This document shows, in pieces, positions 17,478 to 18,895 of a stretch of DNA of 32,000 nt. The notes beneath the pieces are model-generated. The model saw only the letters and a list, made by a program, of their open reading frames with translations, did not search any database and was not told the origin of the DNA. The stretch's first letter is position 1. The number at the start of each line of letters is the position of its first letter. Made by a program: the position numbers and the translations under genes. Origin of the DNA: Alkalilimnicola ehrlichii MLHE-1 (GTDB lineage: Bacteria; Pseudomonadota; Gammaproteobacteria; Nitrococcales; Halorhodospiraceae); contig NC_008340.1 in the NCBI RefSeq assembly GCF_000014785.1, positions 540,001-572,000 of the forward strand, read 5' to 3'.

Positions 17478-17512
17478 CGCGCTCAGCCGTCGCCGAGCCG
17501 CTCCCCCACGAT
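17478..17512. repeat. Direct repeat copy A (displaced copy of the DUF3617 gene 3' end)
   Basis: CGCGCTCAGCCGTCGCCGAGCCGCTCCCCCACGAT is identical at 33 of 35 positions to 18861-18895. On the minus strand it would read ..VGERLGDG*, versus the real gene end ..VGERIGDC*. Confidence 0.85.
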
Positions 17513-17552
17513 TGAACAGAGTGGCTTCGGCACGCGTAGCCGGGTCCCATGG

Positions 17553-18716
17553 TTAAAGGGGTTCGGCGCCCTCATTGAGTATGGTGATGTACCGGTCATA
17601 GGCGTAGATGCGATCCCTGCTCCGCCCCGTGATTTCGCGCAGTATCCCAAGCCTTTCGAGTGCAGCCACGGCTCGGGACGCGGTTGGGAAGCTGACTCCG
17701 GCGCGACTGGCCAGGTCATTGATATTGGCCAGGGGACGGGTGCGCAGGGCCTGATAAATGCGGAGCGTGTTAGCGGCCGCCCGCCCAAGTGCTTCGATGC
17801 GCTGCTGATCTTCCGCAAACAGGGCCAGCAGCCGGTGGGCGGTATCGACCGCACCGGTTGCCGTCACCAGCACCCCATCCAGAAAGAAATCCAGCCAGGC
17901 CTCCCAGTCGCCCACGTTTCGGGTCTGGTCAAGCAGACGGTAGTATTCGGCCCGATGCTGTTTGAAGTAGAGGCTCAAGTACAGCAACGGCTGATGCAGC
18001 ACCCCCTCCTGGTGCAGGATGAGCGCAATGAGCAAGCGGCCGATGCGGCCGTTGCCATCCAGAAAGGGGTGGATGGTTTCAAACTGCACATGCGCCAGTG
18101 CCGCCTTTACCAGGGCGGAGAAGGGCAACTCACGGTCGTGAATGAAGCGTTCCAACCCCGCCATGTGGTCCTCGACCTCTTCCCAGGCAGGAGGCACGAA
18201 GTGGGCGTTCCCCGGGCGAGTGCCTCCGATCCAGTTCTGACTGCGTCGAAACGCCCCAGGCTGCCTTTCGGCACCCCGCCCGCGTGAGAGGAGGTGTGCG
18301 TGCATCTCGCGAAGGAGTCGATTGGAGAGCGGAAATCCCTCCCCGATTCGGGCCAAGCCGTGGTCCAGAGCGGCAACGTAGTTGGAAACCTCTACGACAT
18401 CGTGGAAGGGCACCCCCGCAGCCTCCTCCAACTCGAACAGCAGCAGGTCCGAGAACGAGGACTGTGTGCCCTCGATTTGGCTGGAAACCAATGCCTCTCG
18501 GCGGACATAGGCGTACAGGAAAAGGTCGGGTTCCGGCAGCAGCATGGTGATCGCATCCAGCCGACCGCAGGCCAACAACGCCTGTTCATGGAGTCTCGCC
18601 CGGTCCCCGGTTATCTGTGGGCCGGGATCCGGGGGCAGGGGGTAGGGCGCGAAGGTGCGAACCCGTTCGCCACCAATGTGCCGTTCCACGAAGGTTCCAG
18701 CCGGACCACGCTGCAT
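17553..18716 (-). CDS. Fic-family protein (class II, autoinhibited AMPylase type) with a C-terminal winged-helix domain
   Basis: Fic motif HPFLDGNGRIGR. The N-terminal inhibitory-helix motif [ST]xxxE[GN] appears as SSQIEG. The C-terminal INDLASRAGVSFPTASRAVAALERLGIL is wHTH-like. ATG 18716 (MQRGPAGTF...) is preferred over the upstream GTG 18746. Confidence 0.9.
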   Translation of the reverse strand: MQRGPAGTFVERHIGGERVRTFAPYPLPPDPGPQITGDRARLHEQALLACGRLDAITMLLPEPDLFLYAYVRREALVSSQIEGTQSSFSDLLLFELEEAAGVPFHDVVEVSNYVAALDHGLARIGEGFPLSNRLLREMHAHLLSRGRGAERQPGAFRRSQNWIGGTRPGNAHFVPPAWEEVEDHMAGLERFIHDRELPFSALVKAALAHVQFETIHPFLDGNGRIGRLLIALILHQEGVLHQPLLYLSLYFKQHRAEYYRLLDQTRNVGDWEAWLDFFLDGVLVTATGAVDTAHRLLALFAEDQQRIEALGRAAANTLRIYQALRTRPLANINDLASRAGVSFPTASRAVAALERLGILREITGRSRDRIYAYDRYITILNEGAEPL

Positions 18717-18730
18717 TGCTATGCTCGCTC

Positions 18731-18759
18731 GTGATAATAGCCGCACCCGCTATTATCAC
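18731..18759. promoter_or_regulatory. 11-bp perfect palindrome arms GTGATAATAGC-N7-GCTATTATCAC upstream of fic (possible operator)
   Basis: Read directly. It is AT-rich relative to its surroundings and lies 15-43 bp upstream of the preferred fic start on the minus strand. Confidence 0.35.
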
Positions 18760-18860
18760 TTCATGCGTTATGTGTTAGCAAAGGGGCCGAATGGTGACGC
18801 CAAAGGCGCTCCCTTCGCGATCTGTGTGGGTGGTGGGCGCCAGGGCGGCGACGGCATGAT

Positions 18861-18895
18861 CGCGCTCAGCAGTCGCCGATCCGCTCCCCCACGAT
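18861..18895. repeat. Direct repeat copy B (within the functional 3' end of the DUF3617 gene)
   Basis: CGCGCTCAGCAGTCGCCGATCCGCTCCCCCACGAT, with 33/35 identity to 17478-17512. Confidence 0.85.

Follow-up and report, generated by a model that had tools for sequence, protein, structure and literature searches.

The window analysed here is a stretch of 32,000 nucleotides from Alkalilimnicola ehrlichii MLHE-1 (contig NC_008340.1, positions 540,001 to 572,000; coordinates below are those of the window unless a locus is named), and the feature under study is a short direct repeat that brackets a fic gene and duplicates the 3' end of the neighbouring gene, which encodes a DUF3617 protein. Both the DUF3617 protein and Fic match their A. 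ehrlichii MLHE-1 counterparts with 100% identity. From left to right, the genes are those for an Xre/RES pair, OEP, a multicopper oxidase, CopC, CopD, HsdM, HsdS, a DarT fragment, DarG, HsdR, a YgjP-like peptidase, a hypothetical protein of 347 residues (hyp347) and a DUF3320 protein. The order continues with copy A of the repeat, fic on the minus strand, copy B together with the DUF3617 gene, also on the minus strand, and then redoxin, LigT, HbpS-like, DUF3108, purN, purM and further core genes.

The repeat is 36 nt long, with copy A (17477-17512) reading TCGCGCTCAGCCGTCGCCGAGCCGCTCCCCCACGAT and copy B (18860-18895) reading TCGCGCTCAGCAGTCGCCGATCCGCTCCCCCACGAT. The two copies are identical at 34 of the 36 positions, with a longest run of identity of 15 nt, and their starts lie 1383 bp apart. 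A previous reading of this DNA, made from the sequence only, had described a 35-nt repeat with 33 identities; the repeat is real, and that description is the same feature minus the first T of the 36-mer. When up to three mismatches were allowed, only copies A and B were found across the window, in which they form the sole high-identity repeat, and blastn-short gave no exact match longer than 12 nt between the 36-mer and the rest of the window. None of 100 dinucleotide-preserving shuffles of the window yielded any 36-mer match, and a scan of viral contigs with the full 36-mer gave zero matches. Both edges of the repeat are sharp, as a gapped local alignment of the flanks adds no extension. An independent complete genome (CP184336.1, loci L001 and L003) and separate read-set assemblies (L002 included) contain the two copies as well, and the repeat is therefore not an assembly artefact.

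Translation of the two copies bears out the proposal that copy B is the real end of the DUF3617 gene and that copy A duplicates this 3' end as ...GERLGDG*. Copy B gives ...IVGERIGDC* and copy A, in the same frame, ...IVGERLGDG*, so that copy A covers the last 30 nt of the DUF3617 gene, stop codon included, plus 6 nt beyond. By tblastn, only the last 8 DUF3617 codons are found at copy A, and there is no further DUF3617 remnant in the window or in L091, a locus that extends to its left. Copy A begins 2 nt past the TGA (17472-17474) of the 242-aa DUF3320 ORF. Both differences between the copies are non-synonymous (Ile to Leu and Cys to Gly). At these two positions copy B keeps the codons of the closest homologues, in Alkalispirillum and in the lineages L094 and L014 (ATC for Ile, TGC for Cys), and copy A is the derived one; both changes in copy A avoid residues that are conserved among the closest homologues. 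The synonymous variants GTG and CGG are, on the other hand, common to copies A and B, as are the 6 nt that follow the stop codon, and all of these are missing from Alkalispirillum, L094 and L014. As these shared bases are specific to the lineage, the template of the duplicated segment was the gene end of the A. ehrlichii lineage itself and not a distant donor.

The insert between the two copies is compositionally foreign to both of its neighbours, and its limits coincide with the repeats: its GC content is 62.3%, and the GC content at third codon positions (GC3) is 73.5% in fic, 91% in the DUF3617 gene and 84-86% in the DUF3320 pair. A survey of ORFs and Pfam domains agreed with the earlier observation that fic with its upstream palindrome is the only cargo, fic being the only credible gene inside the repeats. 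The Fic protein matches the PADLOC SoFic model PDLC03963 with an E-value of 9.6e-117, residues 20-381 aligning with profile positions 7-359 of 361. The translation holds both motifs by which class II Fic proteins are recognized, the N-terminal (S/T)xxxE(G/N), here the inhibitory motif SSQIEG, and the catalytic HxFx(D/E)GNGRxxR, here HPFLDGNGRIGR. Upstream of the gene there is a perfect palindrome (GTGATAATAGC-N7-GCTATTATCAC) within which the -10 element of the predicted fic promoter is placed. This palindrome is kept at an equal distance from the ATG in L088, where the homologue is 77% identical, and is half-conserved in L096; given this conservation, it travels with fic. It is probably the operator through which fic would be autoregulated by its own winged helix-turn-helix domain. 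The insert has no Rfam match, and in a test for terminal inverted repeats it scored the same as the mean of the shuffles.

The second sequenced strain (CP184336.1) has the same layout with identical repeat copies. In this strain, fic has an 81-bp deletion (window 17959-18039) and is called as two pieces in L003, and a 281-bp deletion runs across the hyp347/DUF3320 junction (window 16571-16850). The common layout together with these deletions indicates that the arrangement is older than the split of the strains and that it is decaying. Both fic and the hyp347/DUF3320 pair are thus being lost in CP184336.1.

Table 1. Features of the fic locus and of the variable block to its left, in window coordinates.
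Feature	Coordinates	Strand	Basis
Xre/RES toxin-antitoxin pair and copper-resistance block (OEP, multicopper oxidase, CopC, CopD)	1..5836	+	gene calls
Type I restriction-modification (RM) system (HsdM, HsdS, HsdR) with embedded DarT fragment and DarG, plus YgjP-like peptidase	5904..15337	+	gene calls, PADLOC
hyp347 and DUF3320 (242 aa) gene pair, convergent with the DUF3617 gene	15706..17474	+	gene calls
TGAAC, 5-bp direct repeat directly flanking copy A	17472..17476 and 17513..17517	+	sequence
Repeat copy A, orphan DUF3617 3' stub (IVGERLGDG*) with no upstream gene body	17477..17512	-	sequence, tblastn
Insert between the repeats (fic cassette), 1,347 bp; 1,383-bp unit with one repeat copy	17513..18859	-	sequence
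fic, 387-aa class II Fic AMPylase of SoFic type with C-terminal winged helix-turn-helix domain	17553..18716	-	Pfam Fic_N, Fic, HTH_IclR; PADLOC SoFic
Perfect palindrome with 11-bp arms, probable fic operator	18731..18759	.	structure z -4.7
Sigma-70-like fic promoter, predicted (TTGCTA, 18-nt spacer, GATAAT)	18752..18781	-	consensus match only
Repeat copy B, functional DUF3617 3' end (last 30 nt with stop) and 6 nt downstream	18860..18895	-	sequence, repeat search
DUF3617 gene, 140 aa, Met-rich periplasmic-type protein, last core gene before the variable interval	18866..19288	-	Pfam PF12276, E 5.8e-19

A walk from the RES toxin gene located the left end of the variable block at an intact tRNA-Thr(CGU) (L091 9192-9267, with window position 1 at L091 9690), about 420-500 bp to the left of the window start. 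Beyond this tRNA gene there are genes of the UbiE-type methyltransferase, aminotransferase, beta-CASP, Iso_dh (isocitrate/isopropylmalate dehydrogenase) and Ldh/Mdh (malate/lactate dehydrogenase) families, which also flank the interval in the sister genus Alkalispirillum. In Alkalispirillum the DUF3617 protein is 82% identical, and the core genes on the right follow the gene order of the window, with DNA that is 77-82% identical; this synteny stops precisely at the DUF3617 stop codon. What follows there is DUF8239, GSHPx, a glycosyltransferase, DUF1289, a hypothetical protein and DUF1330, and then tRNA-Thr(CGU) and the UbiE-type methyltransferase. The lineages L094 and L014 also diverge directly past the DUF3617 stop. 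The interval between tRNA-Thr and DUF3617 is a replacement hotspot, occupied by six genes in Alkalispirillum and by a ~19-kb mosaic of defence and copper genes in A. ehrlichii. The Alkalispirillum genomes contain a single copy of the 36-mer region, which is the gene's own end; related genomes with both copies and no insertion, which had been named as the case that would speak against an insertion, are therefore not represented by Alkalispirillum, which is without fic. In addition, the closest homologous pair of hyp347 and DUF3320 (64% amino acid identity) is located elsewhere on the chromosome of an Alkalispirillum-like metagenome-assembled genome (MAG) and has no 36-mer downstream, so that copy A does not travel with this pair.

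Taking these data together, the repeat is very probably an insertion scar with a displaced gene end, the fic unit having been placed just inside the end of the DUF3617 gene. The scar is supported by a repeat that is unique and far beyond chance, by the single copy in Alkalispirillum, and by an insert that is a complete expression unit with foreign GC3. We favour, although only tentatively and at somewhat less than even confidence, a Campbell-type or site-specific mechanism, because the intact gene end lies by the gene, the orphan stub lies beyond the cargo, the copies are in direct orientation, their edges are sharp and there are no terminal inverted repeats. A circle of 1,383 bp would have carried a 36-bp segment that matched the target exactly (-30 to +6 from the DUF3617 stop), and it would have integrated through this segment in the Campbell manner. 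We infer both this circular intermediate and the recombinase; the likeliest agent would be a tyrosine recombinase that acted in trans or has since been lost, RecA acting on short homology being a less likely variant. The junction of such a circle would read CTCTGTTCA-36-mer-TCATGCC (in the longer form, GCCACTCTGTTCA-36-mer-TCATGCCGTCGCC), and that of the empty site ATGGAG-36-mer-GTTCAGCGG (in the longer form, CGCATGGAG-36-mer-GTTCAGCGGGAACGG). The resulting unit would be a minimal element resembling a cis-mobilizable element (CIME), and the insert would now be fixed and decaying, as suggested by the two non-synonymous changes of the stub and the deletion in fic of the second strain.

Several observations weigh against an integrase-mediated insertion. 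No recombinase gene was found among the called genes of the window and of a further ~20 kb outside it (together ~52 kb from A. ehrlichii), in agreement with the previous remark that the fic unit has none in it or near it, and an integrase or cognate element for the 36-mer was likewise not found in these ~52 kb. The 36-mer has no dyad symmetry and contains no dif-like sequence, and if both differences between the copies predate the insertion, the longest identity of 15 nt is too short for RecA. Both A. ehrlichii strains carry the identical fic/repeat layout and neither is without fic. Five other fic loci (L087, L088/L089, L096, and the plasmid loci L101 and L102) have no flanking repeats that would mark an insertion, and thus give no sign that such cassettes form a family; the sole repeat at these loci, in L089, is a palindrome of REP (repetitive extragenic palindromic) or terminator type that also encloses a thioredoxin gene. 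Finally, copy A is directly flanked by a 5-bp repeat (TGAAC-36-mer-TGAAC), the first TGAAC of which holds the DUF3320 stop codon. Such a flank occurs empirically at 0.0014 (0.14%) of the window positions; microhomology at the junction, a target duplication of 5 bp and chance are all possible origins, and the integrase model does not predict it. In a scan of metagenomes with the DUF3617 protein, a single distant relative (24% identity) was found but neither an empty nor an alternative site, and a search of the literature on A. ehrlichii genomic islands gave nothing about the fic/DUF3617 locus.

Some of these observations favour instead a displacement of the gene end by one-sided homologous plus illegitimate recombination (homology-facilitated illegitimate recombination, HFIR) between hotspot arrangements, homologous within the core at one end and illegitimate at the other, with a close relative as the donor and with neither integrase nor attachment (att) site: the repeats are found at no other fic locus examined, the 36-mer has no recombinase-like symmetry and the TGAAC at the stub could be junction microhomology. 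Either a DUF3617-fic segment would have come in, pushing the resident last 30 nt downstream, or the DUF3320/RM block would have brought with it the 36-bp end of a donor DUF3617 gene. The setting is also favourable to this route, as the tRNA-Thr-DUF3617 interval is a recombinase-free mosaic, wholly replaced between genera with breakpoints exactly at core gene ends, as L094 and L014 break off at the same stop codon, and as the lineage-specific bases of the duplicated segment point to a donor that is a close relative; moreover, there is published precedent for orphaned 3' ends (PMC5361080). However, this explanation requires two events, in which fic or DUF3320 was first set 6 nt past the stop in one lineage and an asymmetric exchange then followed, HFIR is rare next to the usual replacement by double crossover (PMC5361080), a donor haplotype did not come to light, and a 36-bp stub is far shorter than the usual orphan fragments. 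We consider it a strong rival of somewhat lower probability, and the Campbell route, which needs one event, is the classic reading. The TGAAC flank could also be explained if fic originally lay directly between DUF3617 and DUF3320 and copy A were a secondary local duplication, in which the DUF3617 end was captured at a staggered TGAAC break by template switching or as filler DNA and a 5-bp target duplication was produced. The exact flanking of copy A by TGAAC fits this idea, as does the finding that the DUF3320 stop runs without a seam into the 3' flank of fic once the 36-mer and one copy of TGAAC are taken out, and the derived bases are indeed in copy A. Nevertheless, bacteria are not known to have a mechanism that would routinely copy 36 bp from a site at a distance of 1.4 kb, the presumed switch points are without visible microhomology, the 5-bp match was noticed post hoc and could be due to chance, and it is left unexplained why the copied piece should be precisely the segment that adjoins the other end of the fic insert, all of which makes a secondary duplication improbable.

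The sequence-only reading had attributed the repeat to site-specific, integrase-type insertion, and it stands in part: the duplication of a 3' end around one foreign fic unit without recombinase is real, while a non-integrase route fits equally well and one of the two forms proposed, a tandem array of islands with a further repeat near an integrase at the far left, has to be abandoned. In this form the RM/copper block would be an older island at a shared att site, as could be thought from the position of copy A exactly on the boundary between fic and the DUF3320-RM genes, and elements are well known to accumulate at a single att site (PMC5704250). However, the far-left end has been reached, and it is the tRNA-Thr(CGU) beside conserved core genes with the same neighbours as in Alkalispirillum, with neither a 36-mer nor an integrase; because the rest of the variable block ends there, the fic unit is not part of a tandem array. 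No third copy of the 36-mer exists in L091, L092 or L093 (where only chance matches of 10-18 nt were found), at the CopD/HsdM junction or in the rest of the window, no integrase is present among the called genes and no DUF3617 remnant at the protein level, so that tandem accretion is very improbable. The least credible explanation is a chance similarity, a generic repeat family or a shared functional motif such as a terminator or regulatory site. It could be invoked because the genome is GC-rich and because a 21-nt core of the repeat (GTCGCCGANCCGCTCCCCCAC) was found in 68 unrelated, mostly actinobacterial genomes, all of high GC content, in a scan of 185,579 species genomes (A. ehrlichii was not among the genomes returned). 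However, there was a single match per contig and none of these genomes is related, the shuffles gave no match, no significant structure, Rfam family or terminator-like site is associated with the 36-mer, and copy A plainly derives from the coding end of DUF3617, stop codon included. The generic repeat family that the previous reading had named as a possible objection is thus not seen, with two copies in the ~52 kb of A. ehrlichii DNA and the core once per contig elsewhere.

The second of the forms proposed previously, a degraded or trans-mobilised mini-island, is viable but unproven. A stronger version of it appears decidedly improbable, in which the 1,383-bp unit would be an active minimal defence cassette devoid of integrase, with a 36-bp attachment site. 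Its excision and re-insertion at the 3' end of a protein gene would then be the work of a recombinase encoded at an unlinked chromosomal site or on an integrative and conjugative element (ICE). If it were true, the unit would be a chromosomal counterpart of integron cassettes or of plasmid dif modules that shuffle single-gene immune systems.

Other kinds of element were considered and rejected. A transposon, insertion sequence or miniature inverted-repeat transposable element does not agree with the absence of terminal inverted repeats and transposase, nor with a duplication of 36 bp when 2-15 bp would be expected. In the case of an integron gene cassette, the boundaries GCTGAAC and ATTGAAC are direct and not inverted, both deviate from the RYYYAAC/GTTRRRY consensus at position 4, and the 3' flank is without significant hairpin. 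A simple tyrosine-recombinase site of the lox, FRT or dif type, with two inverted elements around a 6-8-bp spacer and a total of ~28-36 bp, was also ruled out, as the 36-mers fold like their shuffles (z -0.05 and +0.67, no significant hairpin) and no dif-like sequence is present; neither does the 36-mer match any Rfam family or terminator-like site. A structured RNA is similarly excluded by the lack of Rfam matches and of significant structure. For the larger block, a tRNA-targeted genomic island was discarded, as the tRNA-Thr at its left is intact but the window contains no 3' fragment of this tRNA gene and no integrase.

Among described systems, the fic unit resembles most in its structure the CIMEs, which are defined as elements that retain attL and attR and have lost the genes for integration and transfer (PMC5704250), such as CIME19258 and CIME302 at the 3' end of fda in Streptococcus thermophilus (Pavlovic 2004; reviewed in PMC5704250). 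Like these, it is bounded by direct repeats in which the end (3') of a protein gene is duplicated, with the intact gene on one side and an orphan fragment on the other, and it contains cargo only: a 36-nt repeat (34/36) covers positions -30 to +6 of DUF3617, only fic is inside and no recombinase is found in the surrounding block. In contrast to them, the fic unit has no known cognate ICE, integrative and mobilizable element or integrase and no third att copy or tandem partner, it is far smaller (1.38 kb with one gene) and its host is a gammaproteobacterium, the likeness being structural. The orphan 3' fragments that arise by C-terminal displacement in Rhs, contact-dependent inhibition (CDI) and type VI secretion system (T6SS) effector-immunity loci have been attributed to HFIR (PMC5361080). 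They share with our locus a conserved upstream gene, new cargo, a displaced old 3' stub and a hotspot without mobility genes; however, they consist of variable toxin ends with immunity genes and usually span hundreds of bp, whereas the A. ehrlichii stub is 36 bp long, conserved and near-identical to the functional copy. A third comparison is provided by the interval itself, in Alkalispirillum-type metagenome contigs in which tRNA-Thr(CGU) is interrupted and a 45-50-nt 3' stub lies by DUF1330 (L006 15178-15222; L008/L009 15157-15206). The stub is followed by an integrase-led island in L008 and by an ICE-like island (ParA, DUF2857) in L006, and the same interval is therefore a proven integrase hotspot in the sister genus, but at its tRNA-Thr end. 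These islands, like other tyrosine-integrase islands at the 3' ends of tRNA or protein genes, leave a partial 3' duplication of the target beyond the insert (45-50 nt of tRNA-Thr compared to 36 nt of DUF3617), but L008 has an integrase by the junction and L006 has ICE-like genes, and the fic unit has neither.

Defence hotspots without recombinases have reportedly been described between core genes in an E. coli pan-genome study. Like such hotspots, the A. ehrlichii interval is defence-rich, bounded by tRNA-Thr and DUF3617, and replaced in content between relatives. To our knowledge, these hotspots are normally described without duplicated core-gene ends inside, and the A. ehrlichii locus differs in this respect. 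How single-gene defence systems enter recombinase-free hotspots is poorly understood, and here the junctions can be read at base-pair resolution: the locus displays a 36-bp displaced gene end and a cassette that contains only a promoter, an operator and an ORF, and it delimits the hotspot exactly, between tRNA-Thr and DUF3617. Should the repeats be functional att sites, the fic unit would rank as a trans-mobilised defence cassette of unusually small size; should they be a recombination scar, displacement-type remodelling would be documented outside toxin loci. Being one locus of one species, it is a further example of known categories, namely a repeat-bounded, recombinase-less insertion scar in a defence hotspot, and not a new kind of element.

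With respect to its function, the A. ehrlichii fic is a putative single-gene anti-phage defence gene of the SoFic type. SoFic is a single-protein abortive-infection defence system against phages (PMC12249575), and our protein is like it in the full-length model match (PADLOC), the class II inhibitory helix motif, the canonical catalytic motif and the C-terminal domain, as well as in its location inside a defence island with type I RM and DarTG. It is unlike it in that the cassette has no room for a downstream small antitoxin like AS1, because only 40 bp separate the fic stop from copy A. Several orders have homologues with 70-80% identity, which stand alone among unrelated genes, and homologues are also found on 169 plasmids, for instance beside a MOBP relaxase or beside TniB/TniQ genes and a Mu-type transposase. 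Members of this Fic family are thus often carried by mobile DNA, which counts in favour of the Campbell-type or site-specific route.

Several other features of the window are worth recording. The C-terminal half of the DUF3617 protein is rich in methionine, with 12 Met in the last 60 residues (MEMDMHMRMM, MGEMKMRME), and resembles Cu(I)-binding Met motifs; its gene adjoins a thiol-redoxin gene and shares the interval with the copper-resistance block (OEP, multicopper oxidase, CopC and CopD; 1521-5836). The DUF3320 protein (16746-17474, 242 aa) fits only the extreme C-terminal end of the PADLOC candidate PDC-S37 (positions 1386-1544 of 1550), and it forms with the 347-aa partner encoded upstream a pair that is conserved in Arhodomonas, Aquisalimonas, Spiribacter and the Alkalispirillum-like MAG; the DUF3320/hyp347 region gave no match when compared with plasmids. 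In the DarTG module between hsdS and hsdR (9808-11183), DarG is full length (PADLOC E 2.2e-121) and DarT is only a 96-aa ORF that corresponds to the C-terminal quarter of the family, that is, the toxin is degraded and the antitoxin is retained. HsdS (8331-9564) is nearly all different between the two A. ehrlichii strains (comparison with L001/L091), with conserved stretches of 193 nt and 75 nt, while the identity is 97.4% for HsdM and at least 99% over the rest of the island, as is usual for the swapping of specificity domains. A perfect 19-bp inverted repeat (CTGTAGGGTCCCGGATGAT / ATCATCCGGGACCCTACAG, at 15359-15377 and 15432-15450, with the arms 54 nt apart) sits in the 368-bp gap between the YgjP-like and hyp347 genes and is present in other A. 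ehrlichii loci. Finally, the 68 genomes that contain the 21-nt core of the 36-mer exceed a rough expectation of about 5, and on the opposite strand this core may perhaps encode a conserved motif (VGERxGD) of some protein family of high-GC genomes.

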